A stretch of DNA of 64,000 bases from Escherichia coli (GCF_030013205.1 NZ_CP122648.1), one strand, 5' to 3'; shown: positions 5,320 to 60,210, counted from the first letter of the stretch. Notes: generated from the letters alone by a model not told the origin. Numbers and translations: made by a program.

Positions 5320-6622
5320 GCGCCTGTACCTTGGCTCCGTAATCATTAATCGGCTGCCATTTCGCTGGCAGTCCGGTGAAATCTGCTTGCGCTACGCCAA
5401 GACGTACCGCCTGATCAATAACAATGCGCGCAACGTCAAAGTGACGTGCACGCGGATACTGTGACAGATATTCGCGTACCACCAGACCAAGATCCAGCGG
5501 CACTTGTCTGGTTTTGTACACGGCGAGTTGTTCTTCGATGATCGCCGCCAACTGTTCGCGGATCTCGTTAAACTCTTCGTACTCCAGATCCTCAGGAAGT
5601 TCTCCTGTCACTTCTTCATCGCGCAGAGCCATCTCTTCGTCACGCATATCCAACAGACGATCGGCATTGGCATAAGTTAGCGCCCACGGCTCATCAAAAT
5701 AGGTTTGTACCGACTGACGTAACCGCTGAGCAAAGACGCGGTTTTTATCCATATCGATCGCAGTACGAATAAATTTGTGTACGTGGCGGTCGTAGCCAAT
5801 CCACAAATCGATGGATTGCTGGCCCCAGCTGATAATACGGTCAAGTTTGCTCTGCAGATCGAATACCAGACGATCGACAAAATGCAGATCGTCATGGGTC
5901 ATCGTCGCATCCTGAATGCGTAACAGGTTGGCCTGCAATTTATCGCCTGCCGCTTCCAGCGTATCCTGCAATTCACGCAGCGTGCCGGAAGTTTCTGAAA
6001 GCAACAATTCACAGCTGGAAATCGCCGCCCGCCAGTCTTTGTTCAACAACTGGGCGATATCATCCTTCACCTGCTGCTGCTGTTCATCCATCAGACGTTG
6101 CGTCAGGTCGATACTGTCGAAAATTTCTGCTACCGAATATTTCAGTGGCGCATAAACATTACGGTGCCAGTGAAATTCATCACCGCCCTCTTCGGCGGCA
6201 TCTGCTGCGCGTTTGAGCTCACCCGCCACAATCGACAATTGCATAGAAAGGCGCAGCGTAGAAAACTCGCGCTGACGAATGTAATAGTCAGTGATGCCAA
6301 TGCCGAGCGGCGTCAGACGGTAAATTGCGTTCCCTTCCGCCTGCTCGCTGGTAAAGCGGTTCAGCAGACGTTGACGCACCATGTCGTTGATCGCGTTGTT
6401 GGCGCGCACGCCGATGGTTTCGCTGGTTTGCTCAAACGCATCACTCACATGGCGGAATGCATCCACCAGCTCGCCTTCACTCATCTCACCATCCAGACGC
6501 TCGCCGTTCAGCGTGGCAACCGCCAGCAGAAAAGAGAGTCGGTCTACCGGCAGCGAGATGGAGAAGTCATTTTTTCTGGCCCAGGCAACCAGTTCGGGGA
6601 CTGTCTGGGAAAATTCACTCAT
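5300..6622 (-). CDS. mukF: Condensin kleisin subunit MukF, 440 aa
   Basis: Full-length ORF, operon position between cmoM and mukE. Confidence 0.95.
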
Positions 6623-7404
6623 ACTTTATCCTTGCTCTGCGGTTTGCGCGCGGTGACATGAATATAACGCCCCAGGGTAATATACGGTTCCTGACGGCAA
6701 TAACGCGTTTCTAATTCAAGTAATGCTTCATAGCAGTCGCGCTGCTGGTGCTTCTCGCGCAGATAATCATGAAACACGCGAACGCCTGTCTTACCCATAA
6801 TTTGCCAACCAGCTTCTTCCAGCCACAGATAAACCTGCGCCGGGTCGCGTGGATAATCTGGCGAAAGCGTCCGTTTTTTCTTTTTCGGCATTCCCGCCTG
6901 CACGTAATCAAAATTCCCGGCGACCATGTTATGCATCAGCAAGCCGTGCGCATTGTAGAACATTAACGACAACACACCGCCTGGACGCAACACTGACCAC
7001 AGGGTCTGTAATACGCTGCGGGGATCGGCCACCCACTCGAGCACCGCATGGAACAATATCAGATCAACGGGCGTTTCCAAATGCGAAGCAACATCCTGAG
7101 CGGCGCAATGTATAAATTGCATGTTGTCGCTCACACCTTTTGCTTCTGCCGCCTGTTTTGCGCGGTCGATCATCTGCGCAGAAAGATCGCATAAAATGAC
7201 CTGATGCCCGCGCTCAGCCATTTTGATTGCGGTCTGCCCTTCTCCACCGCCAGCATCCAGCACACGCAGTTTTTGCGGGCCCATTTCCGCCAGCACGCGA
7301 TCGAGATCCTGCCACAGAATAGCCTGTCGAAGCTGCCCTTTGGTGGTGCCGTAAATGTTACGGGAAAACTTTTCCGCAATATCATCAAAATTGCGATCCT
7401 GCAT
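6619..7404 (-). CDS. cmoM: SAM-dependent tRNA methyltransferase CmoM (formerly SmtA)
   Basis: Methyltransferase motif VLDAGGGEG; 4-bp ATGA overlap with mukF; start taken at MQDRNFDD. Confidence 0.9.
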
Positions 7405-7539
7405 TGCTTTCTCCACCGGTTGGCTAAGACGTTTTCTGATAAAGACGCTATTTTGTCACAGCCACGGCGAGAATGAACCCGTCTGGTGTAATATCGCTGG
7501 CGATCCCTTGCTATATGGTTAAAAAAGGAACCAGAAAGG

Positions 7540-8319
7540 ATGCTTTTTACACTGAAAAAAGTGATTGGCAATATGTTGCTGCCACTTCCGCTAATGTTGT
7601 TGATTATTGGCGCTGGCCTGGCGCTGCTGTGGTTTAGCCGTTTTCAAAAAACCGGGAAGATTTTTATTAGCATTGGGTGGCTGGCGCTCTTGTTATTGAG
7701 TTTGCAACCGGTAGCCGACCGCCTGCTGCGTCCCATCGAAAGCACCTATCCGACATGGAATAATTCGCAAAAAGTGGACTATATCGTGGTGCTCGGAGGT
7801 GGTTATACCTGGAACCCGCAGTGGGCACCAAGCTCGAATTTAATCAATAACAGTCTGCCCCGCCTGAATGAAGGTATTCGCTTATGGCGCGAAAATCCGG
7901 GATCAAAACTGATCTTCACGGGAGGCGTAGCAAAAACCAATACGGTGAGTACAGCCGAAGTAGGTGCCCGAGTTGCGCAATCGCTGGGCGTGCCGCGCGA
8001 GCAAATTATCACTCTGGATTTGCCAAAAGATACCGAAGAAGAAGCTGCGGCAGTGAAACAGGCAATTGGTGACGCCCCTTTCCTGCTGGTGACATCCGCG
8101 TCTCATTTGCCGCGGGCGATGATCTTTTTTCAGCAGGAAGGGTTAAATCCGCTGCCAGCCCCGGCGAATCAGTTGGCCATCGACTCGCCGCTTAACCCGT
8201 GGGAACGGGCAATCCCTTCTCCAGTCTGGTTGATGCATAGCGATCGTGTTGGCTATGAAACGCTTGGCCGCATCTGGCAGTGGCTAAAAAGTTCGTCAGG
8301 CGAGCCACGGCAAGAGTGA
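7540..8319 (+). CDS. elyC: Envelope biogenesis factor ElyC (YcbC, DUF218), 259 aa
   Basis: N-terminal membrane segment plus DUF218-like body; divergent from cmoM as in K-12. Confidence 0.88.
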   Translation: MLFTLKKVIGNMLLPLPLMLLIIGAGLALLWFSRFQKTGKIFISIGWLALLLLSLQPVADRLLRPIESTYPTWNNSQKVDYIVVLGGGYTWNPQWAPSSNLINNSLPRLNEGIRLWRENPGSKLIFTGGVAKTNTVSTAEVGARVAQSLGVPREQIITLDLPKDTEEEAAAVKQAIGDAPFLLVTSASHLPRAMIFFQQEGLNPLPAPANQLAIDSPLNPWERAIPSPVWLMHSDRVGYETLGRIWQWLKSSSGEPRQE

Positions 8320-46679: not shown

Positions 46680-46967
46680 ATGACAGCAGAGTACATCAGG
46701 GACTGGCAACAACCGCGCCACGCAGTGGGGCGTGAAGGAACGGGGATCCCTGCTCCTGAAGCGGTGGAAGGTGTCGCAACGTCACAGGCCGACATTATCG
46801 ACCGTTTTAATGCGCTGGAAACCCGCCATCAGCAGGACAGCCAGAAAATCACTTTACTGACCACAGAGCTGACAGCACTGAAGGAAAAACTGCGCACGCA
46901 GGACGGCGATCCGCAGAACCGGTTCACCGCAACGGGCGCAGCCTCCGATCAACTGGCTGACTTCTGA
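46680..46967 (+). CDS. Hypothetical phage protein, 95 aa
   Basis: Tightly packed ORF. Confidence 0.45.
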   Translation: MTAEYIRDWQQPRHAVGREGTGIPAPEAVEGVATSQADIIDRFNALETRHQQDSQKITLLTTELTALKEKLRTQDGDPQNRFTATGAASDQLADF

Positions 46968-46990: not shown

Positions 46991-47254
46991 ATGAATCTGG
47001 TGATGTCAGATATTACCCGCAACAAGCTGGGTTGCTATATGGCGCAGCAGGCGTCGCTTAACAACATCCCGGTATCTGCACTGGTATCGCGATTTACCGT
47101 GGAACCCTCGGTGTCCGCCATTGCTGCCGCACTGCATGTGCACGGTGTGCAACGCGTGGAAATAATCGAACCCACACAGAATATGGCCATCAGCGACATA
47201 CAGGCGGCGCGCTGTGAGTCATTCACCATCAGCGAAGGTGGACGCAATGAGTAA
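46991..47254 (+). CDS. Short ORF (87 aa) overlapping the gpI start; possibly a 3' remnant of baseplate gene J
   Basis: 8-bp overlap with gpI as expected for a J/I junction; far shorter than P2 J (~300 aa). Confidence 0.35.
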   Translation: MNLVMSDITRNKLGCYMAQQASLNNIPVSALVSRFTVEPSVSAIAAALHVHGVQRVEIIEPTQNMAISDIQAARCESFTISEGGRNE

Positions 47255-47774
47255 TTCGCTGTTACCACCATCAGCCAGCAATTTCATGCGTTGTGCCGAA
47301 GCCGTCGGGACACGCATTACAGACATTCCGGTAGACCTCAACACGCTGTGGTCGCCGGATACCTGCCCGGTGCATCTGCTGCCTTATCTCGCCTGGGCAT
47401 TTTCCGTTGACCGCTGGGATCGCAACTGGCCGGAAGAGACAAAGCGACAGGTGATTCGTGATGCATGGCTGATACACCGACACAAGGGAACCATCAGCGC
47501 ACTGCGCCGGGCCATTGAGCCGCTGGGATATCTCATTCGTGTGTCTGAGTGGTGGGAGTTCGACGGCGAACCCGGAACATTCAAGGTTGATGTTGGCACG
47601 CTGGACAGTGGTGTGACCGAGGAAATGTATCTGGAAATGGAACGGCTGATTGCCGATGCCAAACCCGCAAGTCGCCACCTTATCGGCCTGAACATTATCC
47701 AGGACATTCCTGGCTATCTGTATACAGGCGGTGTGGTCTGTGATGGTGATGTTATTACTGTTTATCCCGGATAA
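47247..47774 (+). CDS. Baseplate/tail protein I (P2 gpI family), 175 aa
   Basis: MSNSLLPP...LWSPDTCPVHLLPYLAWAFSVDRWD...ERLIADAKPASRHLIGLNI matches recalled P2 gpI. Confidence 0.85.
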   Translation: MSNSLLPPSASNFMRCAEAVGTRITDIPVDLNTLWSPDTCPVHLLPYLAWAFSVDRWDRNWPEETKRQVIRDAWLIHRHKGTISALRRAIEPLGYLIRVSEWWEFDGEPGTFKVDVGTLDSGVTEEMYLEMERLIADAKPASRHLIGLNIIQDIPGYLYTGGVVCDGDVITVYPG

Positions 47775-47784
47775 GTGAGAAACA

Positions 47785-50442
47785 ATGAGCACGAAATTTA
47801 AAACCGTTATCACTACTGCCGGAGCCGCGAAGCTGGCAGCCGCCACTGTCCCCGGCGGGAAAAAAGTAACTCTGTCTGCAATGGCCGTGGGTGACGGTAA
47901 TGGCAAATTGCCGGTGCCGGATGCCGGTCAGACGAAACTGGTGCATGAGGTCTGGCGTCACGCTCTGAATAAAGTCAGCGTGGATAACAAGAATAAAAAC
48001 TATATCGTGGCTGAACTGGTTGTACCGCCAGAAGTGGGCGGCTTCTGGATGCGTGAGCTGGGTCTGTATGACGATGCCGGAACACTGATTGCGGTCGCTA
48101 ACATGGCGGAAAGCTATAAACCTGAACTCGCTGAAGGCTCCGGGCGCGCGCAGACCTGCCGCATGGTTATTATTGTCAGCAACGTGGCGTCCGTTGAGCT
48201 GAGTATTGATGCCAGCACAGTGATGGCGACGCAGGATTACGTCGATGACAAAATCGCAGAGCATGAGCAGTCCCGCCGCCATCCTGACGCCACGCTGACA
48301 GAAAAAGGTTTTACTCAGTTAAGTAGCGCAACAAACAGCACCAGTGAAGAGCTGGCGGCAACGCCAAAGGCAGTAAAAGCAGCCTATGACAATGCTGAAA
48401 AACGTATGCAGAAAGACCAGAACGGTGACGATATTCCAGATAAGGGCGCTTTTCTGGACAACGTTGGCGTTACCAGCCTGACGTTTATGAAAAACAATGG
48501 CGAAATGCCGCTTGATGCTGACTTGAATACATTTGGTCCCGTTAAGGCTTATCTTGGCATCTGGTCTAAAGCAACATCCACCAACGCAACACTGGAGAAA
48601 AATTTCCCGGAAGATAATGCTGTCGGTGTGCTTGAGGTTTTTGCAGCTGGCAATTTTGCAGGCACGCAACGTTTTATCACGAGAGACGGCAATGTATACA
48701 TGCGTAAACTCGCCAATAAGTGGAATGGCACTGATGGTCCGTGGGGCGTATGGCGTCACACTCAATCAGCTACCCGCCCTTTGAGTACGACTATAGACCT
48801 GAATACGCTTGGAGCCGCTGAGCATCTTGGTTTATGGCGTAACAGTAGCTCGGCTATAGCTTCATATGAACGCAATTATCCAGAGGAAGGCGGCTTTGCT
48901 CAGGGGACGCTTGAGATCCTCGAAGGCGGGAATTATGGAAGAACGCAACGTTATACCACTCGTCGTGGGAATATGTACGTTCGCTGCCTTGCGGCAAGCT
49001 GGGATGCATCAAATCCGCAGTGGGAACCGTGGTTAAGAGTCGGTCATCAGTCAGAGAGCCGTTATTACGAAGGTGATTTGAATGTTCTAACCGACCCCGG
49101 TATTTACAGTGTTACAGGAAAGGCGACAAACGGTCCGATGCTGGACGCTGCTGGGGCGACATTGCTTGGGATACTGGAAGTAATCAGGCGTTTTGATGGT
49201 GTATCTGTCTGGCAGCGTTACACAACCACAGGGAAATCAGAAACCACACAGGGGCGCACTTTTGAGCGCGTCTACGCCGGGAGCACATGGACCGAATGGC
49301 GAGAAGTGTATAACTCCTTTTCGTTGCCCCTGAATATGGGGATCGGTGGCGCAGTGGCAAAACTCACCAGCCTGGACTGGCAGACCTACGATTTTGTGCC
49401 GGGCAGTCTGATAACCGTTCGGCTTGATAACATGACCAATATTCCCGACGGTATGGACTGGGGCGTCATTGATGGCAACCTGATAAACATCGCTGTTGGT
49501 CCGAGTGATGATTCCGGTACGGGGCGCTCAATGCATGTATGGCGCAGCACTGTAAGTAAAGCGAATTACCGCTTTTTTATGGTTCGCATTTCAGGAAATC
49601 CGGGAAGCCGCACGATTACGACAAGACGTGTGCCAATTATCGACGAAGCTCAGACATGGGCGGCGAAACAGACATTCAGCGGTGGTCTTTCTGGCGAACT
49701 ATCCGGCAATGCTGCTACAGCAACAAAGCTGAAAACGGCAAGGACAATTAACGGCGTAAAATTTGACGGCTCGGCAAATATTGAAGCGTTTCCGCCAGGT
49801 GTTCCGCTGCCGTGGCCATCAGATACTGTGCCGTCTGGTTACGCCCTGATGCAGGGACAGACTTTTGATAAATCTGCATACCCGAAACTTGCAGTCGCTT
49901 ATCCGTCAGGCGTGATCCCGGATATGCGTGGCTGGACAATCAAGGGCAAACCCGCCAGTGGTCGGGCCGTATTGTCTCTGGAACAGGACGGCATTAAATC
50001 GCACACCCACAGTGCCAGCGCATCCAGTACGGATTTGGGTACGAAAACCACATCGTCGTTTGATTACGGTACTAAATCAACGAATAACACAGGTGCACAT
50101 ACCCACAATGTATCTGGTACTGCAAATAGTGCTGGCGCACATACTCATACCGTTCCATTAAGGAGACCAAACAGTGGCGGTATGAATTTCGACTGGCTGG
50201 ATGGTGCATCAAGTGGCACGGTGGTGGGGAATGGAACTGTGCCTTCTTCTGGCGCACATACCCACTCAGTATCAGGTACCGCTACAAGTGCTGGGGCACA
50301 TGCACACACTGTTGGTATTGGCGCTCATACGCACTCTGTTGCGATTGGTTCACATGGACACACCATCACCGTTAACGCTGCTGGTAACGCGGAAAACACC
50401 GTTAAAAACATCGCATTTAATTATATTGTGAGGCTTGCATAA
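47785..50442 (+). CDS. Tail fiber protein (P2 gpH-like), 885 aa
   Basis: Conserved N-terminal fiber domain ([20 protein letters not shown]...), internal repeats, C-terminal HxH repeats (GAHTHxVSGTAxSAGAH) ending [11 protein letters not shown]. Confidence 0.9.
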
Positions 50443-51059
50443 TGGCATTCAGAATGAGTGAACAATCACGTACTGTAAAAATTTATAACCTGCTGGCCGG
50501 AACTAATGAGTTTATTGGTGAAGGTGACGCATATATTCCACCTCATACAGGGCTGCCAGCCAATTCTACAGATATCGCCCCACCGGAAATTCCTGCTGGC
50601 TTTGTGGCAGTTTTTAACAGTGAAAATGAATCGTGGAATATTGTTGAAGACCATCGTGGTAAAACGGTCTATGACGTGGCATCGGGGGACGCGTTGTTTA
50701 TTTCTGAACCCGGACCGCTACCAGAGAATGTCACCTGGTTGTCGCCAGCAGGGGAGTATCAGAAGTGGGACGGCGTATCCTGGGTGAAGGATGAGGAAGC
50801 AGAAAAACTGTTTCGGATACGGGAAGCGGAAGAGAAAAAGGCAAGGTTGATCCAGGAAGCAACAGATAACATCGCAATTCTGCAGGATGCAGTTAATCTT
50901 GAAATAGCAACAAACGAGGAAAATTCACAACTGGATTCCTGGAGAAAATACAGAGTATTAGTGAGTAGAATTGACACCAGTACAGCTCCGGATATCGTAT
51001 GGCCAGAGCTGATGAATCAGGGTTATGTGCGGGAGGACGAGCAGATAACTTCAGACTGA
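50442..51059 (+). CDS. Tail fiber assembly chaperone (P2 gpG/Tfa-like), 205 aa
   Basis: TAATG-coupled to the fiber gene; Tfa-like sequence. Confidence 0.8.
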
Positions 51060-51586
51060 AATTTAGTGATGAATGTTGAATCATCTGGAATATCATGCAA
51101 TACCAATGCATGAGCACCTATTGTGACATTGTTTCCTATACGCACTTTGCCACCAAGAATGGTGGCATTACAACCAATGGTCACATTATGTCCTATAACA
51201 ATATCCATATCATTAAAATCACCACGCAGCCCAATAGTTACCCCTGGTTTTATTGAACAATTTTCACCGATTGTTACTTTGTGACCGATAACAACACTGT
51301 TGAGATAAGAAATATCAAAGCCTTTCCCTATATTTACAGTTAAAGGGACTGTTACATTATATTTATCAAGAATGAAACGTTCTATTTTCCCCGCAATCTT
51401 CCGACAGCATCCGCCTTTATCAAAAAGGTATTTGGCTATGCGCCACCAAAATAAATAACGAACTCTTCTATGTTTTATTGCGCGAACAATTGCCTTTCGC
51501 CAGGAGAAAGGACGCTCGCTACCGATTACTTCATAGTGAATACAATCTTTAAGTTCATTAATATTCATATCTCTATTATTCAGCAT
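51023..51586 (-). CDS. Hexapeptide-repeat O-acetyltransferase (WcaB/CysE-like), 187 aa
   Basis: Left-handed beta-helix repeats ([45 protein letters not shown]); AT-rich; 37-bp convergent overlap with the fiber assembly gene. Confidence 0.75.
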
Positions 51587-51756
51587 AAGATAATCATGTG
51601 ACCAATTATTGTAATAATTTTAATGGTATGTTTCTACTGGCTATCCAGCGTGTCTGATGTCCAGTAACAAATCGTTAACACTGGTGCAATCAAATGGTGA
51701 GTGTTAAGACTGGCCACTTATTACCAGGTATGAGGGTATGAGTGGCCAGCATTAAA

Positions 51757-52251
51757 TCAGAACAGCCCTTTAACTGAACTGGCCGCGCTGTTAAGGGATG
51801 ATGTCACTTTATCTTTGAAGCCGGACAGCATATCGCTGAACGATGAGGATTGCAGGCGCTCCCGCAAATCCTCATCACAGCGTTCAAGGGTCAGTGAAAA
51901 TTCTATCTTTTTCGCCTTACCGTAGCGATCAAACTCGGAACGGGTCGTATTCGTTTCGGTCAGGACATACATGCCGTAAATCTGCCCGACGCCATCAATA
52001 AGAGGCCAGGGGCGTCCTGTATACGCCTGCGTGGTCAGCAGCGACAGCGACACTTCGCCACCTGTAATTTCAGGATAAAGCACACCAGAAAGAACGATGC
52101 GATCATCACCTGCACCGATATACTGCCAGCTTGCTGAACGGTTAACGCGTTCATTTTTCACATGCCGCCAGCTTTTGTTTTGCTGTAACTGCTGATGCGG
52201 CAGCGTGCGCAGCTCAAAAACAAACATGCCGTAGATCATCATCATGGCCAT
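51757..52251 (-). CDS. Tail protein U (P2 gpU-like)
   Basis: MMMIYGMFVFELRTLPHQQLQQNKSWRH...VLSGVLYPEITGG...PLIDGVGQIYGMYV matches recalled P2 gpU. Confidence 0.88.
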   Translation of the reverse strand: MAMMMIYGMFVFELRTLPHQQLQQNKSWRHVKNERVNRSASWQYIGAGDDRIVLSGVLYPEITGGEVSLSLLTTQAYTGRPWPLIDGVGQIYGMYVLTETNTTRSEFDRYGKAKKIEFSLTLERCDEDLRERLQSSSFSDMLSGFKDKVTSSLNSAASSVKGLF

Positions 52252-52257
52252 GACTCC

Positions 52258-55074
52258 TCAATCTTTATCGTAAAAACTGCCACGCCCGGCACGGGCGCGC
52301 CGTTCCATTTCTGCCCTGACCATTTCACCGACCAGTTTCGCCAGTTCGCGGGGATTCTGCGTAACAACGTTATGCAGATGAACATGAATTTCACCACCAA
52401 ATCCGGAGGCAACAGGCTCCCGGTTACGGGAAGTTACAGGAACTGATGCCACTGGAGATCGTATGGCCTCCGCCACCGGGCGGGAGCTGGCCGCAACAAC
52501 AGGGACCAGCGCCGGAGGCAGCGGAGCCGGGACCACGGGTGTGATATTAATTGCGGGGGCAGGCTTACTGACCTGCGCAATCTTCCGCTCCTGCCACTCT
52601 CCACGAACAGCAAGTGCGCGGGGCAGGTTCTTAAAGACAATATCGCCGGGGCCAATGCGTTTTTTCGTCTCATCAACCAGCTTACCTGTGTTATCAGCAA
52701 TTTTGCTGAGTCTGCGTAGCGTCCCGGTATTGCTGTCTGTGAGCGGTTTGTTGTCTTTGGGTTTATTACCTCCGGTGCCATTGCCATTTTCCACAGGCTT
52801 CGGCGGATTGATTTTCGCCAGGTCACCCTGAAGCAAGGCAACCTTGTCCTGAAGAATGGCCGCACGCTGTGCGTCTTCGATTTTCTTGCGCGCCCTTTCC
52901 GCTTCATCCGGAAGGACGCCAAGTTTTTCAAGTATCCACGCCAGCGTATCCAGTAGCATTTTTGCAGGTGTCAGAACAAGCTGTAACGCACCGCCAAGAA
53001 CGTTACCGAATATCTCGCCAGCACTGGTACATTTATCCAGCGTTTCCTTGCTGGACTCCATCGGTGACAGCAGCGATTTAAACCAGTTAAACACCTGGCT
53101 GATCCCGCTTCCGATTGTGTCAAAAACAGGACCAAACCGTTCAAAGGTTTCGCGCAACGGGGTCAGCCTTTCCATAATCCCGCTGAACACCCCGGCAAAA
53201 AATGCCCTGATGGGATCCCAGTATTTCCAGATAAGAACGGCAGCTCCGGCAAGCGCAGCCACGATAAGACCAACCGGACTGAACAACGCCCCGATGGCGC
53301 CTCCCAGTAAAGAAACGGAACCCGTCACCATTCCCCACAGCGCAGGCAACACCCTGACGACATTCATTGACCGGGTAAGAATGTCAAAACCAAGACGCAG
53401 GGTGGCCAGCTTCCCGTAAAGCACCCCAATAACCAGCGACAACGAGCCAATCGTTGCAGTCATTGCCAGCAACGCACCGCCTGCTATCAGTAGCTGGCGC
53501 GTCAGTACCGGATGGGCCTGCGCCAGCGAGGTGATTTTTTCAAGCACCCGCGTGAGCCACTGCGTGACAGAACGCAGCGGACCGTCAACCAGATCACTGA
53601 TGCGAATACGAAGACCTTCCCATGCGCTGTCGAGATTTTTCAGGTCCCCATCAAGATTATCGGCCATTACTTTTGCGACGCGATCGGCCTCTCCCCTTGC
53701 CCCCTGCAATTCTCTGGTCAGTTTTTGCAGCTCTCCTGAACCAGCCGCCGCAACAAGCGTCTGCAAACCAACGAACGCCTCTTCTCCGGCGATGTCCTTG
53801 AAGAAGGAAACCTGGTCCACCTGTCCGTATTTTTGTGTCGCCTTATAGAGATCAAGCAGCACATCCTCCATCGGGCGCATTTTGCCTCTGGCGTCAGCAA
53901 CTGACACCCCCAGCTCTTTCAGTGCATCAGCCGCAGCTTTTGGCGGTGATGCAAGGCGGGACAGACTTGCGCGCATGGCCGTACCAGCATCGCTTCCGCG
54001 AAGACCATTATTGGCAAGCATCCCGGCCATGGCCGCCGCTTCTTCAAGACTGATACCAAGTTTTGCGGCAACCGGACCGGTATACTTCATGGTTTCGCCC
54101 AGCGCGCGTAAATCAGTATTGGTCCGGGTGAATGCTGCTGTCAGCGTATCGCCAACACGGTCCATTTGATCGGCTGTCAGGTTGAACTGTGTGAGGATAT
54201 TGGAGCCTATATCAGCCGTCTCGCCGAGTTCGACGCCACCTGCCAGCGCCATATTAAGAACACCGGGCAATGCGGCCTGAATGGCCTGCGGAGTAAAACC
54301 AGCCATTGCCAGAAAGCTCTGCCCACTGGCGGCATCACTCGCAGTAAACTGTGTTTCAGAGCCAAGTTTTAACGCCTGCTCACGCAGCGCCTTAAACTGC
54401 GGGCTGTTTTTGTCGATTCGCGTCAGTGCCTGAACGCGGGACATCTCTTTGCCGAACCCGATCGCAGGCTGCAAAAAACGCCCGGCAGCATAGCCGCCCG
54501 CCGTTGCCGCACCAATTGCCAGCGCACCACCTGTTTTCAGTTTTCCCGCTGTTTCCTGCGCGCGCGAATACCGCTCACGCGCCCGTGTTACACGCGCAAG
54601 CGCCTGCCGTTCGCGTTCAAGCTGGTTGTTGTACTGTTCGGTGCGTCTGATGGCCTGCTGGATGGTGTTATCGCTGCCTGTCAGGGAAATGCCGTGGCGT
54701 TTCAGCTCTCCGCCAAGCTCCCGCATTTTCTGAATTTCCCGTGTGCGCGATTCATTCAGGCGTTCAAGCCGGGTGCTTAACTGCTGCATCAGCTTTTGTT
54801 GTTTTTCGCTGAGCACTGTACCCGTGCGTTGTAACTGATTAAGGGCGTTAAGCTGGCGTCGTGCTTTCAATATGCCAGCATCCGCTTTACTGACAGCGTC
54901 ACGGGCGCGCTCAAATGAACGCGCCTGACGCTCGAGATTTTTGATCGCCCCCTGCGTTCGCTGGATGGAGTCACCAAACTGCCCCATCAGGCGGCGGGCG
55001 TTTTCGGCAGGCCGGGTCAGCCTGTCAACGGCGCTGAAAGCGACCCGGATGTCAAGAGTCTTCATTGTCTGCAT
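52258..55074 (-). CDS. Tail tape measure protein (P2 gpT-like)
   Basis: Long coiled-coil/TM-rich protein between E' and U; start uncertain (ORF extends to 55101). Confidence 0.85.
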   Translation of the reverse strand: MQTMKTLDIRVAFSAVDRLTRPAENARRLMGQFGDSIQRTQGAIKNLERQARSFERARDAVSKADAGILKARRQLNALNQLQRTGTVLSEKQQKLMQQLSTRLERLNESRTREIQKMRELGGELKRHGISLTGSDNTIQQAIRRTEQYNNQLERERQALARVTRARERYSRAQETAGKLKTGGALAIGAATAGGYAAGRFLQPAIGFGKEMSRVQALTRIDKNSPQFKALREQALKLGSETQFTASDAASGQSFLAMAGFTPQAIQAALPGVLNMALAGGVELGETADIGSNILTQFNLTADQMDRVGDTLTAAFTRTNTDLRALGETMKYTGPVAAKLGISLEEAAAMAGMLANNGLRGSDAGTAMRASLSRLASPPKAAADALKELGVSVADARGKMRPMEDVLLDLYKATQKYGQVDQVSFFKDIAGEEAFVGLQTLVAAAGSGELQKLTRELQGARGEADRVAKVMADNLDGDLKNLDSAWEGLRIRISDLVDGPLRSVTQWLTRVLEKITSLAQAHPVLTRQLLIAGGALLAMTATIGSLSLVIGVLYGKLATLRLGFDILTRSMNVVRVLPALWGMVTGSVSLLGGAIGALFSPVGLIVAALAGAAVLIWKYWDPIRAFFAGVFSGIMERLTPLRETFERFGPVFDTIGSGISQVFNWFKSLLSPMESSKETLDKCTSAGEIFGNVLGGALQLVLTPAKMLLDTLAWILEKLGVLPDEAERARKKIEDAQRAAILQDKVALLQGDLAKINPPKPVENGNGTGGNKPKDNKPLTDSNTGTLRRLSKIADNTGKLVDETKKRIGPGDIVFKNLPRALAVRGEWQERKIAQVSKPAPAINITPVVPAPLPPALVPVVAASSRPVAEAIRSPVASVPVTSRNREPVASGFGGEIHVHLHNVVTQNPRELAKLVGEMVRAEMERRARAGRGSFYDKD

Positions 55075-55288
55075 TCCCGCTGCGAAGTGCCGCCCGCTCA
55101 CGCCAGCTAACCACTTCGCCGGGCGTCATCATGAAGATTTCGGCGGGCGACCAGTTAAAAATGGCGGCGATATCTGCCACCAGATCTTCGATGTGCTCAA
55201 AGCACACCAGGGTGATTACGCTGCCGTCTCCTGCACGCTCTTCGCGCCAGAGTCTGGCTCGCTCATAAAATTTACAGCCACAGCGCAC
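55052..55288 (-). CDS. E' frameshift extension of tail assembly chaperone (P2 E+E'-like)
   Basis: Overlapping -1 frame ORF continuing past the E stop; joined via a slippery heptamer. Confidence 0.6.
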   Translation of the reverse strand: MRCGCKFYERARLWREERAGDGSVITLVCFEHIEDLVADIAAIFNWSPAEIFMMTPGEVVSWRERAALRSGNADNEDS

Positions 55289-55590
55289 AACTGAATAAAA
55301 TCGCGTGACGACATTTTTTTAATCATCACTTCATCCAGTCGTGGCGAGGTCACGCGAGGCAACAGCGTGAACATGGTATCCGCTTTCAGATTCAGCACAT
55401 CAGACAGCGACAGACCACGCAGGGATCCAGCCTGTTCAATAGCCCCGGTGATCTCCACATACGTGATTTTTTCGCCACCACGCTCAATTGGTCGGGTCAG
55501 TTTTACGCCACGTTCGACAGCCATATCCTCACCTGCCGTCACATCATCCGCCACGGTGTTATTCCGGGTTTCAGTATCGATGTCTTTCAT
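55216..55590 (-). CDS. Tail assembly chaperone E (P2 gpE-like)
   Basis: Small acidic ORF between the tail tube and tape measure genes; start uncertain. Confidence 0.75.
   Translation of the reverse strand: MKDIDTETRNNTVADDVTAGEDMAVERGVKLTRPIERGGEKITYVEITGAIEQAGSLRGLSLSDVLNLKADTMFTLLPRVTSPRLDEVMIKKMSSRDFIQLCAVAVNFMSEPDSGAKSVQETAA
55267..55273 (-). promoter_or_regulatory. Candidate -1 programmed frameshift slippery site A_AAT_TTT (E to E')
   Basis: Heptamer of the form X_XXY_YYZ in the E frame, located where the E' frame opens. Confidence 0.45.
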
Positions 55591-55645
55591 CAGTTGTCTC
55601 CTTTTCAGTCAGAGGCGACGCACTGCGCCGCCTGCATATTACTTA

Positions 55646-56158
55646 TCAGCCAAGCCCGAGCGCGGAACGGATGCGATCGGGCACAATGTCCTTGCCGTCC
55701 TTCCGGTAAATGAAGTTCAGCAGGTCAATCTCCCACAACGGGCGATCGTTAACACTCAGCTTGTAGTAGGTGTTTTTAATGGCGTAAGTGTGTGATGTGG
55801 CTTCGCCCTGTTTGGCTTCCCCCATATCAATTTCCGTCACACGTCCGCGCATTTCGACTTCATACAGGTCGCTTTCTGCATCGGTGTAGTATTCACCCGC
55901 AAAACGCAGCAGCGTGCCGTCAATCGTGCCGCCATACTTAAGGAACAGCTCACGAACTGCGCCCCCCATGACAAAGCTCGCATCAAGCGCGGAGTCGTCC
56001 AGACCGAGATCAATACTTACCGCACCCATCATGCCACCACCCCGGTAGCTGTCGGTTTTGCGCGTCAGCTTAGGCAGAGTGACGGACGTCACCTTACCCA
56101 CTTCGTTTTCACCATCCACAAACAGCGTAAAAAAGCGAAGATGTTTTGGTACAGCCAT
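55646..56158 (-). CDS. Tail tube protein (P2 gpFII-like), 170 aa
   Basis: ...VTLPKLTRK...YRGGGM...DLGLDD... matches recalled P2 FII; TGATG-coupled to the sheath gene. Confidence 0.9.
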   Translation of the reverse strand: MAVPKHLRFFTLFVDGENEVGKVTSVTLPKLTRKTDSYRGGGMMGAVSIDLGLDDSALDASFVMGGAVRELFLKYGGTIDGTLLRFAGEYYTDAESDLYEVEMRGRVTEIDMGEAKQGEATSHTYAIKNTYYKLSVNDRPLWEIDLLNFIYRKDGKDIVPDRIRSALGLG

Positions 56159-57345
56159 CAGGCACCTCCCAGCACCGCAAATGCGGGACCAAAGAATTCA
56201 TCAGTAAACGACTGATAAAGCTCCATGTCTTCCAACGGGGGAACAGGCGTATATTTGTAGCGAATACGCACGCGCCCCTGACGTAAATCCGTGGTGCTGT
56301 TATCCACCACGTCATACCAGCACTCCGCGCCAATCAGTTTCCCGGCAGTCACCAGTGAATCCAGTTTTGCCCTGATGGCACTGATAACATCCTTCACGTT
56401 CGCAGGCGTCAGTGGACTGTCGATGGTTTCAAACTGCGCTTCCGCAATTGAATCAGCCAGCACCTGTGCGGTTCGGGTATACACCTCAAAGATGTAGGCG
56501 TTCGTTTCCGGTGTGCGGTTGCCCCAGAAGCGGAACCCGTTGCGACGAATAATGGTCGTGATTTCTTTGTTGTTGAGGCTGTTGGCATCGCTGTCTTCGG
56601 CCTGCAACGACCAGAACACATGCCTCGACATCCCCAGCACATTTTTAACAGGAACGTTGGACAGTGATTTGTGCCAGCCCTGCTCATGGTCAATGTACGC
56701 ACGAAGGCCGCACGCATAGGCAGGCGCGGGGAACGTTTCGTTTTTGCCACTTTTCGGGTTGTAGGCGATGAAGTCCGGCCATAAGAGCATCACCTCACGT
56801 TCGTTGAATTTCTGGCGGTAGGTAATCGCATCAGCCATCGTGTCACAGCCATGACATGAGGCATACACAAACGCGCGCAGTTTACCCGCAATCACGCACA
56901 GGGATTTTGTCACCGCCTCCGTGTCCAGCTCCGGCGCGGCCAGAATACGCGGACGGTATCCGATGCTTTCATCCTGCTCTGCAACAAGCAGCGCATACAT
57001 CCCCGTATAGCTGCCGTCAGATTCAGAACCACCGATAACCAGTTGATCCTGCGTCTTTCCGTCTTCTTCTTTGTGTTCAGCCACGCGAACGACGATCACC
57101 TTTGTGCTCACCTGGTCTGCGATAGCCTTAAGCGCACGATAAAGCGTCCCCGTTGTCCCGCATTTTCCCAGCACGTCATTGACGCGGGTCAGCAGTGTGG
57201 GCTTGTTCAGCGGGAACAGCTTCGCGTCCGCATCATCCGCCGTTGCCACGATACCGATAACACTGGAATCAACATCATTAATCGCTGTTACCAGGTCGGT
57301 ATTTTCCGTAACACGGGCACCATGAAAACGAGTTTCACTCATAGC
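56158..57345 (-). CDS. Contractile tail sheath protein (P2 gpFI-like), 395 aa
   Basis: Start taken at MSETRFHGARV; size and sequence typical of a myovirus sheath. Confidence 0.9.
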   Translation of the reverse strand, partial: AMSETRFHGARVTENTDLVTAINDVDSSVIGIVATADDADAKLFPLNKPTLLTRVNDVLGKCGTTGTLYRALKAIADQVSTKVIVVRVAEHKEEDGKTQDQLVIGGSESDGSYTGMYALLVAEQDESIGYRPRILAAPELDTEAVTKSLCVIAGKLRAFVYASCHGCDTMADAITYRQKFNEREVMLLWPDFIAYNPKSGKNETFPAPAYACGLRAYIDHEQGWHKSLSNVPVKNVLGMSRHVFWSLQAEDSDANSLNNKEITTIIRRNGFRFWGNRTPETNAYIFEVYTRTAQVLADSIAEAQFETIDSPLTPANVKDVISAIRAKLDSLVTAGKLIGAECWYDVVDNSTTDLRQGRVRIRYKYTPVPPLEDMELYQSFTDEFFGPAFAVLGGA

Positions 57346-57499
57346 TTCAGCCCCTTGTATCCGTAAAATGATTCGGCAACAATCATCACCCACCACGCGC
57401 GTAATCTCACCCCTGCGCCGTTCTCCCGACCCGGCGACAACAAAAAGCAGTAACCCCCTCCGCACGCACATGCGACCATGCCGCACAGGGAGGGAACAG

Positions 57500-58609
57500 A
57501 TGACCGATACCACCATGCAATTGCTCAGTCAGGGCACAGACCCCGTGAAAATGCCGGATTTTGATATTCTCGCGGAGGGTAAAACGCTGTCAGGCGTGGC
57601 AGAGCGCCTGATGAGCCTGTCACTGACCGACAACCGGGGATTTGAGGCGGACCAGCTCACCATCACGCTGGATGATGCGGATGGTCAGTTGCAGCTACCG
57701 CCACGGGGCGCGCGCCTGACGGTTCTCATTGGCTGGAAAGGAGAACCGCTGACAGAAAAAGGCACTTACATTGTTGATGAAATCGCTCACGAAGGACCGC
57801 CGGACAGGCTGACTGTTTCAGCCAGAAGCGCAGATTTTCGGGATGAATTTAACGTTAAACGTGAGGTGTCCTGGCATGATGTGACCGTTGAGCGTGTGGT
57901 ATCCGCCATCGCTCATCGGTACGGCCTGAAACCGCAAATCAGCGAAATGCTGATGGATATCGAAATCGACCACGCCGACCAGACCGAAGAAAGCGACATG
58001 TCCTTTCTTACGCGCATGGCGGAAATGCTGGGCGCAATCACCACGGTAAAAAGCGGTAATCTGTTATTCATTATGCCAGGCGGTGGCGTGAACGCACAGG
58101 GCCAGCCGTTGCCCTCGTTCGCCATTACACGCAGCAGCGGCGATCGCCATCAGTTCCGTATTGCTGACCGCGAGGCGTATACGGGGGTACGCGCCTACTG
58201 GCTTGATCTTAATTACGGGAAAAAGAAAAAAGTCAGCGTGAAACGCCGTAAACCGCCAAAACCCAAAAAGGAGAAAAGCAGCAGCCGTGAAGGTGATTAT
58301 ATGGAAGGCGCGGAAGGCAATGTGTTTGTGTTACGCAAGACTTATCAGAACGAGCAGGCAGCAAGACGCGCAGCGGCGGCAAAGTGGCAGCAGCTACAAC
58401 GCGGAGCCGCATCATTCTCCATCACGCTGGCGCGTGGACGTGCAGAACTCTACCCTGAAATGCATGGCACGGTGACAGGCTTTAAAAGTGACATCGACAA
58501 TCAGGACTGGATTATTGCAAAAGCCGAGCACACCATTGATAACAGCGGCTTTACCACGCAGCTTGAGCTTGAAGCAAAAATCCCAGAATGGATAGCAGAA
58601 ACAGAGTAA
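57500..58609 (+). CDS. Tail protein D (P2 gpD-like), 369 aa
   Basis: Start at MTDTTMQLL with RBS AGGGAGGG; gpD-like sequence; ORF track extends upstream to 57368. Confidence 0.85.
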   Translation: MTDTTMQLLSQGTDPVKMPDFDILAEGKTLSGVAERLMSLSLTDNRGFEADQLTITLDDADGQLQLPPRGARLTVLIGWKGEPLTEKGTYIVDEIAHEGPPDRLTVSARSADFRDEFNVKREVSWHDVTVERVVSAIAHRYGLKPQISEMLMDIEIDHADQTEESDMSFLTRMAEMLGAITTVKSGNLLFIMPGGGVNAQGQPLPSFAITRSSGDRHQFRIADREAYTGVRAYWLDLNYGKKKKVSVKRRKPPKPKKEKSSSREGDYMEGAEGNVFVLRKTYQNEQAARRAAAAKWQQLQRGAASFSITLARGRAELYPEMHGTVTGFKSDIDNQDWIIAKAEHTIDNSGFTTQLELEAKIPEWIAETE

Positions 58610-58785
58610 ACAACTTAGATGCATTAGCCCTGACATTTGCTAACGCGCCTACAGCAAGAATCATAATCAATCTGACAGCCTACCCGGTGTCAAAATCAGA
58701 AGTACCTTACATTAGAATATGTTAATTTGTAGCAAACAAATTTACACACAAATAATTACTGCTGAAATAGCGCCCCATAAATGCC

Positions 58786-59469
58786 ATGTCAGAGGACCAT
58801 GTTATGAATATGCAAATTTTTATTGGACCAACAGCCACAGTTGCCGCGGTCTGCCTTGCTGCATATTTTGCTTTACGAAATGAGCGTAAAAAGAAAGCGC
58901 TTGAGATTAGAACAACTCAACTAGATCGAATATCTGAGCTAGTAAGCAGAGCATCTACCAATTTGATGCAATATACAGGTACTCTTGCCTCTATACTGGA
59001 AGCGCACACCAAAGAAAATTATCTACCAGACCACAAATTTAACATTAATGAAATTAGCAAATGGAAAAATGATCTCGATAAGAGAGAAGATTGGGCTATT
59101 GATATACAGCAACTAAGAACATGCCAGCACAACCTGGAGTTTCATCGTGAAAAAGAATGGGCTGAATGGGAAAAAATAATTCCACCATTACTTGATAAAA
59201 TTAACCAATTTTTTCTCATATCCAAGCCGGGGCAACCTGTTACGCTTATAAATGGTCAAAATAAAACAGTCGATGAACTGATTGCTTTCTCAATATACTT
59301 ACAACAACAAACAGAAGAAATTAAAGCGGTACGTAAGCTGCTACTTTCTCAAATGAGAGAAGAATTCATCGAGTTAACTAGCTTTGAACCTGTCACAATA
59401 TTTAGCTTATTAAAATCAATAAAGAAAAGTGTCCTGCAATTTTTCTGTATCAGTGCTCTTAAAAATTGA
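58786..59469 (+). CDS. Membrane-anchored hypothetical protein, 227 aa, AT-rich cargo between D and ogr
   Basis: N-terminal TM helix (IFIGPTATVAAVCLAAYFAL) then ~190-aa charged helical domain; low GC; followed by a hairpin terminator at ~59483-59512. Confidence 0.6.
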   Translation: MSEDHVMNMQIFIGPTATVAAVCLAAYFALRNERKKKALEIRTTQLDRISELVSRASTNLMQYTGTLASILEAHTKENYLPDHKFNINEISKWKNDLDKREDWAIDIQQLRTCQHNLEFHREKEWAEWEKIIPPLLDKINQFFLISKPGQPVTLINGQNKTVDELIAFSIYLQQQTEEIKAVRKLLLSQMREEFIELTSFEPVTIFSLLKSIKKSVLQFFCISALKN

Positions 59470-59618
59470 CGCTCTGTTACAAGCAACCCCAGTGTTAAAC
59501 TGGGGTTATTCTTGCTAAGAGACCTTTATACGGCATAAGTAAACAAAGAGAACTATCAGTTGGAGTCTGGGCAAGTTCAGCCTAAACTAGCGACAGTACC
59601 ACGTTAAGGGAGGTCGCT

Positions 59619-59879
59619 ATGTTCCGTTGTCCGCTTTGTGGCGCATCTGCCCGTATCCGCACCAGTCGTCCGGAAAATGATTCAAACACCGTGCGGCAAA
59701 AGTATTACCAGTGCAACAACCTGGAATGCGGCGTATGCTTCTCAACACTGGAAGCTTTCCATAAATTCACATCGAAACACGCCTCCGGCATCCACTCTTC
59801 AGAAGGTATCCCGTGGCATGAGCTGCCAGCTTCACACAGGGGAAACAATCAGATGAGCTTGCCTTTACCTCAGAATTAA
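59619..59879 (+). CDS. ogr: Ogr/Delta-like zinc-finger late gene activator, 86 aa
   Basis: MFRCPLCGASARIRTSR...QKYYQCNNLECG: CxxC...CxxC arrangement as in P2 Ogr. Confidence 0.8.
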   Translation: MFRCPLCGASARIRTSRPENDSNTVRQKYYQCNNLECGVCFSTLEAFHKFTSKHASGIHSSEGIPWHELPASHRGNNQMSLPLPQN

Positions 59880-59939: not shown

Positions 59940-60152
59940 ATGGTCGGAGGGAATACCCGAAGGCCGGATGTGGAAAGGCCCCGGAAAACATTTTTGTTTA
60001 ACCGAGGCCCTGACCATACAACCTTCGCAAGTCGTAGGTTAGCGCCTCTCCAACAAAGGAGCAAGCGCTATGTCGCAAAAATCGCTTATGGCCATCACGT
60101 TCTGCGTGACGGTAATCCTCATCATCTGGATGCTGCACGGTTCGCTGTGTGA
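59940..60152 (+). CDS. Mok-like reading frame overlapping the hok-like toxin gene
   Basis: 70-codon ORF in another frame, starting upstream of and ending within the toxin ORF, as in hok/mok loci. Confidence 0.4.
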   Translation: MVGGNTRRPDVERPRKTFLFNRGPDHTTFASRRLAPLQQRSKRYVAKIAYGHHVLRDGNPHHLDAARFAV

Positions 60153-60210
60153 AATACGGATGAGCTTCTGGGGAGCGGAGTTTGCGGCGTTCTTACAGTG
60201 TAAGCAGTAA
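60070..60210 (+). CDS. Hok/Gef-family type I toxin, 46 aa (MSQKSLMAITFCVTVILIIWMLHGSLCEIRMSFWGAEFAAFLQCKQ)
   Basis: N-terminal TM helix then SLCEIR and AAF motifs characteristic of Hok-family toxins; RBS AAGGAG 8 nt upstream; below the ORF-track length cutoff. Confidence 0.75.
   Translation: MSQKSLMAITFCVTVILIIWMLHGSLCEIRMSFWGAEFAAFLQCKQ

Follow-up and report, generated by a model that had tools for sequence, protein, structure and literature searches.

An inverted FI–U tail-gene block shared by an Escherichia coli prophage and the P88-like branch of the P2 family

Introduction

The late genes of phage P2 (NC_001895) are ordered V-W-J-I-H-G, fun(Z) and FI-FII-E/E'-T-U-D-ogr, and all except fun(Z), which lies on the opposite strand, are read from one strand. 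FI-FII-E-T-U-D form a single transcription unit from the promoter PF, co-directional with V-W-J-I-H-G. This canonical layout is not found in the prophage considered here, which lies in a 64,000-nucleotide stretch of the chromosome of E. coli ETEC4079 (NZ_CP122648.1; the whole stretch is referred to below as the window). Genes I, H and G are on the plus strand, FI, FII, E/E', T and U (51757–57342) are on the minus strand and D and ogr are on the plus strand. The questions raised are whether this arrangement arose in one strain, or in its assembly, and how D is transcribed. An earlier note, made from the sequence alone, took the arrangement to imply an inversion with breakpoints near 51590–51756 and 57346–57499, which had left D without its operon promoter.

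Gene content of the late region

The late region was mapped using an ORF listing, Pfam and tblastn. The prophage sits between dmsA and serS and is a deletion remnant, in which two large deletions have removed A(3')-Q-P-O(5') and N(3')-M-L-X-lysis-R-S-V-W-J. Approximately 15 kb of its genome is missing, and the replication, head, lysis and baseplate genes of P88 are absent from the remnant. The retained late region is 93–95% identical to P88, a figure that refers to the late region only; the ICTV genus criterion is approximately 70% nucleotide identity over the full genome length.

The first intact late gene past the internal deletion junction (47109–47113) is the tail/baseplate gene I (47247–47774, plus strand; RefSeq 'phage tail protein I'), with 67% amino-acid identity to P2 I and 99% to PhiR44_2 I. 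The tail-fibre gene H follows (47785–50442, plus strand; Pfam Phage_tail_fib, Phage_fiber_2 and Collar). It is 86% identical to P2 H in the N-terminus only; the N-terminus is P2-like and the C-terminus is an exchangeable cassette. A G-like tail-fibre assembly gene (50442–51059, plus strand; Pfam Caudo_TAP, E = 1.6e-39) completes the rightward group.

The minus-strand block consists of U (51757–52251; Pfam Phage_P2_GpU; 46% identity to P2 U and 99% to P88 U), the tape-measure gene T (52258–55101; Pfam PhageMin_Tail; 33% to P2 T and 95% to P88 T), which starts at 55065 in RefSeq as opposed to 55101 in the ORF map, the tail-chaperone genes E' (55052–55207) and E (55216–55590; Pfam Phage_TAC_7), whose joint span 55052–55590 includes a RefSeq 'GpE family' CDS, the tail-tube gene FII (55646–56158; Pfam Phage_tube; 100% amino-acid identity to P88 FII) and the tail-sheath gene FI (56158–57342; Pfam sheath domains; 45% to P2 FI and 98% to P88 FI). 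The heptamer AAATTTT at 55267–55273 is a candidate −1 slippery site, and frame analysis finds the −1 frame open from there into E', which suggests a −1 frameshift at this position. The slippery sequence of P2 E/E' is TTTTTTG; the frameshift logic is alike. Compared with NC_001895, the map bears out that FI–U is inverted with its inner order canonical and that FI is divergent from D. A coordinate of the earlier note needs correction, in that FI starts at 57342 and not at 57345.

The range given in that note, 51023–57499, also takes in a 187-residue ORF at 51023–51586 on the minus strand. This ORF encodes a hexapeptide-repeat acetyltransferase (Pfam Hexapep; PHROG 2154; RefSeq 'serine acetyltransferase') with a GC content of 39%, and is a moron in the hotspot between G and the tail operon, outside the inverted block. 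The Pfam assignment rules it out as a Hin/Gin-type invertase, and PADLOC gave no defence-system match. The cassette made up of the H C-terminus, G and the acetyltransferase recurs in the unrelated myovirus vB_EcoM-613R2. Directly past the U stop codon there is an inverted repeat (51704–51755, minus strand) that folds as an RNA hairpin (−22.5 kcal/mol, z = −2.95, no T-run), possibly a weak end of the FI–U transcript; P88 and PhiR44_2 have a bidirectional terminator in its place. P88 homology picks up again at 51752.

To the right of the block, a spacer of 157 nt (57343–57499, assigned to no strand), a putative divergent control region, separates FI from D. The tail/baseplate hub gene D (57500–58609, plus strand; Pfam Phage_GPD) is intact, with 49% identity to P2 D and 99.5% identity over 369 residues to D of the Xuanwuvirus P884B11; the RefSeq annotation covers only 57809–58609. 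A gene for an Ogr/Delta-like zinc-finger late activator lies at 59619–59879 on the plus strand (named as such in RefSeq; PHROG 603, transcriptional regulator). Its product of 86 residues has the cysteine spacing CX2CX24CX4C and 42% identity to P2 Ogr. Between D and ogr is a low-GC insertion of 968 bp (58620–59587, plus strand; GC 35–41%), which is absent from P88 and PhiR44_2, where the gap is 42 bp. It contains an ORF of 227 residues (58786–59469), with no match in Pfam, PHROGs or PADLOC, and a terminator-like hairpin (59485–59507), and may uncouple ogr from D in the window.

Occurrence of the layout among related phages

A single colinear alignment of 6,882 bp (51752–58619, 93% identity) to P88 and PhiR44_2 spans the FI–U block, the right junction and D. 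Alignments to I, the 5' part of H and ogr keep the same order as well. The order and strands of the window are those annotated in both phages. The P88 group (Xuanwuvirus, including PhiR44_2, P884B11 and 500465-2) has I-H-G on the plus strand, U-T-E'-E-FII-FI on the minus strand and D-ogr on the plus strand, with 93–94% nucleotide identity over the colinear 6.9 kb and the same 157-nt spacer and dyad. The window carries the extra D–ogr insertion, and where it has the acetyltransferase, between G and U, P88 has an invertible tail-fibre segment and an invertase.

Annotations and tblastn place the same order in Salmonella phage SEN4 (Senquatrovirus), Klebsiella phage Kp4848-1 (Reipivirus) and Serratia phage KSP20. 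These phages have other hosts and other morons between G and U, and their FI and D proteins are 55 and 63% (SEN4), 70 and 71% (Kp4848-1) and 68 and 75% (KSP20) identical to those of the window. FI is divergent and directly upstream of D in all 80 IMG/VR loci in which D is at least 70% identical. Of 5426 complete E. coli genomes, 1376 have any match at all, and 1357 (approximately 25% of the total) carry an intact FI–D junction; the matches in the other 19 are partial. An 8.3-kb query spanning both junctions was covered to at least 80% in 1101 E. coli genomes. We note that the layout also occurs in prophages of well-studied strains, for example E2348/69, O157:H7, O104:H4 and ST131.

The orientation follows the identity of FI. 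In every record checked with FI at least 54% identical, FI and D are divergent, whereas they are co-directional in all records below 50% for which strands were compared (P2, L-413C, P22H1, Klebsiella Kp4876-1, Ralstonia, Burkholderia, Yersinia, Vibrio MAR, Aeromonas and Wolbachia WO). These identity bands suggest that the phages with the divergent arrangement are monophyletic. The FI to D proteins of the window are just 33–49% identical to those of P2, and the split is therefore old. The P88-like branch of the Peduoviridae comprises Xuanwuvirus, with Senquatrovirus, Reipivirus and Serratia phage KSP20.

These observations bear on three other accounts of the inverted block. The first, a recent flip of FI–U within this isolate in a prophage otherwise ordered like P2, or else an assembly artefact, draws only on the contrast with the P2 order, although the prophage does also bear other strain-level damage in its two large deletions. 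We consider it scarcely credible: the layout is identical in phages that were independently isolated and sequenced and throughout the IMG/VR loci and E. coli genomes surveyed, the alignment is colinear across the junctions, and the proteins are too far from P2 for a P2 derivative. The earlier note had itself named such sharing by related intact phages as what would speak against its reading. Nothing has been rearranged in this strain, and the layout is neither an event of the isolate nor an assembly error. A segment programmed to invert by a site-specific DNA invertase of the Hin/Gin type is brought to mind by the P88 invertase gene, which lies 35 nt from the end of U, and by the ORF beside U in the window, which is of invertase size. 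That ORF is the acetyltransferase, however, and the P88 invertase adjoins the alternative tail-fibre segment of P88 itself. No invertase gene is annotated in the prophage, and the window, PhiR44_2 and SEN4 share the layout without one. The earlier note had proposed searching the two junctions for short inverted repeats or recombinase sites; a search of 50900–58700 for inverted repeats returned only chance-level pairs, none linking 51.6–51.8 kb with 57.3–57.5 kb, and neither junction has recombinase sites. With one orientation only in 80 loci and 1357 genomes, programmed switching deserves almost no weight.

An account without a simple inversion, in which the divergent layout is ancestral and that of P2 derived, or in which D-ogr or FI–U was acquired separately by modular exchange, is improbable to a lesser degree. 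In its favour, the left junction is a moron hotspot from which the original breakpoint sequence is long gone (PMC3573123), and the tail operon has been rearranged in other ways in further P2-like phages, for example Smp131. Against this, the co-directional order occurs in very distant relatives (Wolbachia WO, Vibrio and Aeromonas) and is thus likelier to be ancestral, FI and D have diverged at a similar pace within the clade, which argues against separate origins, and the distance from the dyad in the FI–D spacer to the FI ATG (80–88 nt) equals that at P2 PF (83 nt), which is what a move of PF along with the block would give. An un-inverted comparator with the same H-G-acetyltransferase cassette was sought, but the sole phage match was vB_EcoM-613R2, another kind of myovirus and uninformative on orientation.

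The FI–D spacer

P2 late promoters are Ogr-dependent and have the consensus TGT-N12-ACA (PMC3931495). The FI–D spacer of the window contains a dyad of this type, TCT-N12-ACA, at 57422–57439, with one mismatch to TGT-N12-ACA. The spacer is 157 nt in the window, P88 and PhiR44_2, 151–157 nt in SEN4, Kp4848-1 and KSP20, where a TGT/TCT-N12-ACA dyad is again central, and 147–157 nt in 78 IMG/VR loci (67 unique sequences). Each of these 78 loci has one T(G/C)T-N12-ACA dyad, centred 80–88 nt from the FI ATG and 64–73 nt from the D ATG. Among the 67 unique spacers, conservation extends to the half-sites and ACAACAAAAAG but not to N12, which varies. The left half-site of the window is TCT; SEN4, KSP20 and many of the IMG/VR loci have a true TGT-N12-ACA aligned with the dyad of the window. 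P88 provides an internal comparison, in that its own P–O site, TCT-N12-ACAACAAAAG, matches its FI–D site.

On both sides, nAnnAT hexamers lie 52–57 nt from the outer T of the dyad. In the window these −10-like elements are GATGAT for FI (57382–57387, minus strand; predicted start near 57375) and GACCAT for D (57474–57479, plus strand; predicted start near 57486), the latter being weak. A Shine–Dalgarno sequence, GGGAGGG, stands just upstream of the D ATG on the plus strand. In P2 the mapped PP and PO starts share a single site and lie 64 nt from its outer T on either side, and the PF start lies 65 nt away from the outer T of its site; the spacer geometry equals that of PP/PO and PF. Features of an Ogr-type late promoter are thus present in the window: a dyad approximately 55 nt upstream of a predicted start and a zinc-finger activator encoded by the element. 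The claim that D was left without a promoter is therefore probably wrong.

A generic σ70 promoter and terminator scan found no promoter in the spacer. This null result is uninformative because activator-dependent late promoters match σ70 poorly. It could be set beside the poor match of the D-side hexamers to TATAAT as an indication that the dyad serves the FI operon only, with D having an Ogr-independent promoter of its own or being only weakly transcribed. P2 late promoters, however, likewise fit σ70 poorly and depend on Ogr; the D-side CGCGCGCG-N-AAcCAT block, which resembles the P side of the P88 P–O region, and its 52–57-nt spacing to the dyad are conserved across the 67 unique sequences; and D, an essential tail gene of P2, must be made late with the other tail proteins. 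We regard service to FI alone as a minority possibility, though one with appreciably more in its favour than the accounts of the layout rejected above. Our preference, by a modest margin, is for a symmetric bidirectional Ogr-dependent late promoter built on the single dyad, with the inversion tolerated and then fixed because the palindromic activator site of PF came to lie beside D. The P2 PP/PO region is the model for such an arrangement, since two divergent late operons flank a single dyad activator site there, but it drives head and packaging genes and was mapped experimentally, whereas the FI/D pair is predicted from sequence conservation only. No description of a shared bidirectional FI–D late promoter was found in the papers searched.

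Conclusions

In our view, the data strongly favour the inverted block as the standard, long-fixed late-gene layout of the P88-like branch, derived from an ancestral inversion, with one dyad most likely activating both promoters. In the ancestor of the branch, the FI-FII-E/E'-T-U segment would have inverted together with PF. One breakpoint would have been the moron site that follows G and the other the U–D boundary, both where the earlier note had placed them, and the inversion would have put the activator site of PF directly upstream of D before becoming fixed. The single site, because it is a dyad, would then most likely activate both promoters, leftwards into the FI-to-U operon and rightwards into D and, by read-through, ogr. 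The comparison with the P2 F operon is one of like genes in like inner order, with an Ogr-type activator gene downstream of D in each; but in P2 all seven genes including D are co-directional with H-G in one operon and the U stop overlaps the D start, whereas in the window FI–U is flipped and D begins its own transcription unit.

The arrangement is already known, in that it is visible in annotated reference genomes such as those of P88 and SEN4. An explicit account of the inversion, orientation or synteny was not found in the P88 paper (PMC5285337), a 2026 survey of P2-like viruses (PMC13100340) or the SEN4 paper (PMC5261728), and 'known' therefore rests on the annotated records.

The practical value of the result is negative knowledge: differences from the P2 order at this place should not be flagged as rearrangement or misassembly, and P2 serves poorly as a template for P88-like phages. 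If the bidirectional promoter is real, D and, by read-through, ogr gain a late promoter of their own, and the activator gene comes under its own positive control. A shared FI–D late promoter would explain the correct timing of an essential gene that has been cut from its operon, and this reading would extend to the prophages of roughly one E. coli genome in four.

Gene organization of the late region

The ORF map and the Pfam assignments agree with the gene calls of the earlier note. I (47247-47774), H (47785-50442) and a G-like tail-fibre assembly gene (50442-51059) lie on the plus strand and are followed on the minus strand by U (51757-52251), T (52258-55101), E/E' (55052-55590), FII (55646-56158) and FI (56158-57342), after which D (57500-58609) and an Ogr/Delta-like gene (59619-59879) are again on the plus strand. 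In the annotated P2 reference FI-FII-E/E'-T-U-D-ogr share a strand with V-W-J-I-H-G, whereas FI-U of the window do not; this comparison bears out the reading of FI-U, and not D and ogr, as inverted relative to P2. The block is internally whole, with no interrupted ORF, and a candidate -1 slippery heptamer (AAATTTT, 55267-55273, minus strand) joins E to E'; the heptamer at the matching position in P2 is TTTTTTG. RefSeq annotates D from 57809 only (266 aa, 'VgrG/Pvc8 family') and adds a spurious minus-strand pseudogene (57756-57848), but the complete 369-aa D ORF is intact in the window and shares 99.5% identity with D of Xuanwuvirus P884B11. The 5' region of D at the FI/D junction carries the label 'hypothetical protein' in many E. 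coli genomes.

The region matches the chromosome of the porcine strain E. coli ETEC4079 at 100% identity. According to the RefSeq annotation, the P2-family prophage lies between dmsA and serS (39523-60300 in the window) and contains integrase, repressor, cox and early genes, which are followed by mere fragments of the replication gene, O and N and then by I. Deletion junctions are located near 46680-46760 and at 47109-47113, the latter placed by alignment with the P88-like phage PhiR44_2. The prophage lacks the replication gene, Q, P and the 5' part of O; the deletion at 47109-47113 has also removed the stretch that runs from the 3' part of N to J, with its head, lysis, tail-completion and baseplate genes. 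The 5-bp overlap at this junction suggests a microhomology-mediated deletion. The prophage is thus a defective remnant; the sheath, tube, tape-measure, D and ogr genes survive in it intact. We note that a Hok/Gef-family toxin gene (60070-60210) occupies the right end of the prophage directly before serS, as it does in P88.

Distribution of the layout

The best phage matches to the region are P88-like phages. Gene order and strands are identical in the GenBank annotations of P88 (Xuanwuvirus) and PhiR44_2 (grown on E. coli C), and U to D, including the FI/D junction, align colinearly with these phages in one stretch of 6,882 bp (51752-58619, 93% identity). Searches with the window proteins (tblastn) found a matching layout in Salmonella phage SEN4 (Senquatrovirus), Klebsiella phage Kp4848-1 (Reipivirus) and a fragment of Serratia phage KSP20. 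FI was directly upstream of D on the opposite strand in all 80 IMG/VR loci retained from a scan with a D-protein alignment (D at least 70% identical). Among 5426 complete E. coli genomes, 1101 covered at least 80% of an 8.3-kb query across both junctions in one place. A 758-bp query centred on the FI/D junction was intact, at 95-100% identity, in 1357 of the 1376 E. coli genomes with any match, including E2348/69, O26:H11 11368, O104:H4, O157:H7 and ST131 strains. The P2 orientation was not seen in any close relative among the phage records, the 80 IMG/VR loci or the complete E. coli genomes.

The earlier note had treated the block as an anomaly, a reading that does not survive the finding of related intact phages with the same arrangement. 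Misassembly is excluded, as the layout is common to independent phages, IMG/VR loci and E. coli genomes, and an inversion specific to this isolate is ruled out by the colinearity with P88 and PhiR44_2 and by the wide distribution. Programmed reversible inversion was also considered. The note had proposed a search of the junctions for short inverted repeats or recombinase sites; no inverted repeats pairing the two junctions were found, and neither Pfam nor the RefSeq annotation places an invertase gene in this prophage. An invertase does adjoin U in P88, but it belongs to that phage's own alternative tail-fibre segment, and the layout is unchanged in the window, PhiR44_2 and SEN4, which are without one. 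Programmed inversion is therefore rejected. The layout is the ordinary, database-annotated organization of P88-like Peduoviridae, found here in a decayed prophage.

Age and implied breakpoints of a probable inversion

Identities to P2 are 45% for FI, 42% for FII, 35% for E, 33% for T, 46% for U and 49% for D. We compared the strands of FI and D in a set of phage-database records binned by FI identity. Every compared record with FI identity of at least 54% was divergent (P88-like phages, Klebsiella Kp48xx phages, KSP20 and SEN4/SEN5), whereas every one below 50% was co-directional (P2, L-413C, P22H1, Klebsiella Kp4876-1, Yersinia, Ralstonia and Burkholderia phages, Vibrio MAR, an Aeromonas phage and Wolbachia WO). 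Judged from these identity bands rather than a rooted tree, these results agree with a single ancient inversion that became fixed in one branch within the Peduoviridae, the P2 order being ancestral. The implied breakpoints would be the U/D boundary and the site between G and the tail operon, where insertion of morons (extra genes or cassettes) has been described in P2-like phages (PMC3573123). Breakpoints at these gene ends would agree with two features of the proteins: D shows no conservation over its N-terminal ~18-30 residues, even inside the clade, and the alignment with P2 U stops after residue 127 of 159-164.

P88 and PhiR44_2 have a hairpin 6 nt past the U stop that carries T-runs on both strands and has the appearance of a bidirectional terminator separating the convergent H-G and FI-U units. 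In the window this hairpin, the H C-terminus and G are replaced by a cassette (48316-51751) comprising an H C-terminus, the G-like gene and a minus-strand acetyltransferase, with another hairpin past U (51704-51755; -22.5 kcal/mol, z = -2.95) that has no T-run. The acetyltransferase ORF (51023-51586; GC 39%), which falls in the range given by the earlier note, overlaps the end of G by 37 bp and is a hexapeptide-repeat protein, neither a tail protein nor an invertase (Pfam; PHROG 2154, function unassigned there). The cassette is present at 94% identity in the myovirus vB_EcoM-613R2, the tail-gene layout of which is quite different. In P88-type phages ogr lies 42 bp downstream of D, whereas the window has a 968-bp insertion here (58620-59587, GC 35-41%), absent from P88 and PhiR44_2, with a 227-aa ORF (58786-59469) that has no Pfam, PHROG or PADLOC match and a terminator-like hairpin (59485-59507). 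This insertion is a moron; to our knowledge, the D-ogr gap is not usually listed among P2 hotspots.

Two IMG/VR relatives (L039 and L042) carry a ~1.2-kb insertion inside D (locus coordinates about 2282-3499, equivalent to window ~57767) encoding a 383-aa transposase, presumably IS30-like. In P88 (L002) and PhiR44_2 (L001) the S and V genes (6403-7616) overlap. P2 has orf30 and a separate V promoter region between them and the P88-like phages have neither, so the head/lysis and baseplate/fibre genes of the latter may form one long rightward late operon.

The FI-D spacer and predicted divergent promoters

The FI-D spacer measures 157 nt in the window, P88, PhiR44_2 and SEN4, 154 nt in Kp4848-1, 151 nt in KSP20 and 147-157 nt across 78 IMG/VR loci (67 unique sequences). 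Every spacer sequence examined contains a T(G/C)T-N12-ACA dyad (57422-57439 in the window, predicted to act in both directions), with distances from its centre of 80-88 nt to the FI ATG and 64-73 nt to the D ATG. The N12 is free to vary, while the half-sites and flanking ACAACAAAAAG are nearly invariant, the pattern expected for a putative protein-binding site. The Ogr-dependent late promoters of P2 have TGT-N12-ACA as their consensus (PMC3931495). The P88 P-O intergenic site, TCT-N12-ACAACAAAAG, matches the P88 FI-D site; the strict TGT-N12-ACA form is absent from the 22.6-kb P88 late region, where TCT is used.

When the sequences are anchored on the dyad, -10-like nAnnAT hexamers are found on both sides, 52-57 nt from its outer T: GATGAT, GAATAT or AATGAT on the FI side, and GACCAT, AATCAT or AACCAT, preceded by a conserved CGCGCGCG block, on the D side. 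In P2 PP and PO share one activator site, and the annotated start of each promoter is 64 nt away from the outer base of that site; the PF start lies 65 nt from its own. From the matching hexamer distances on its two sides, the FI-D spacer therefore repeats the PP/PO geometry of P2. The predicted -10 elements of the window are at 57382-57387 for FI (minus strand, start near 57375) and 57474-57479 for D (plus strand, start near 57486); the predicted D start is 14 nt before the ATG, with the GGGAGGG ribosome-binding site inside the leader. The claim that D was left without its operon promoter is thus probably wrong, and D probably has a promoter in this spacer. The inversion would have brought PF beside D, and the symmetry of the dyad likely let one activator site serve both directions. 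In our view, this predicted bidirectional FI/D late promoter, built on a single dyad, would be the sole modestly new element of the arrangement.
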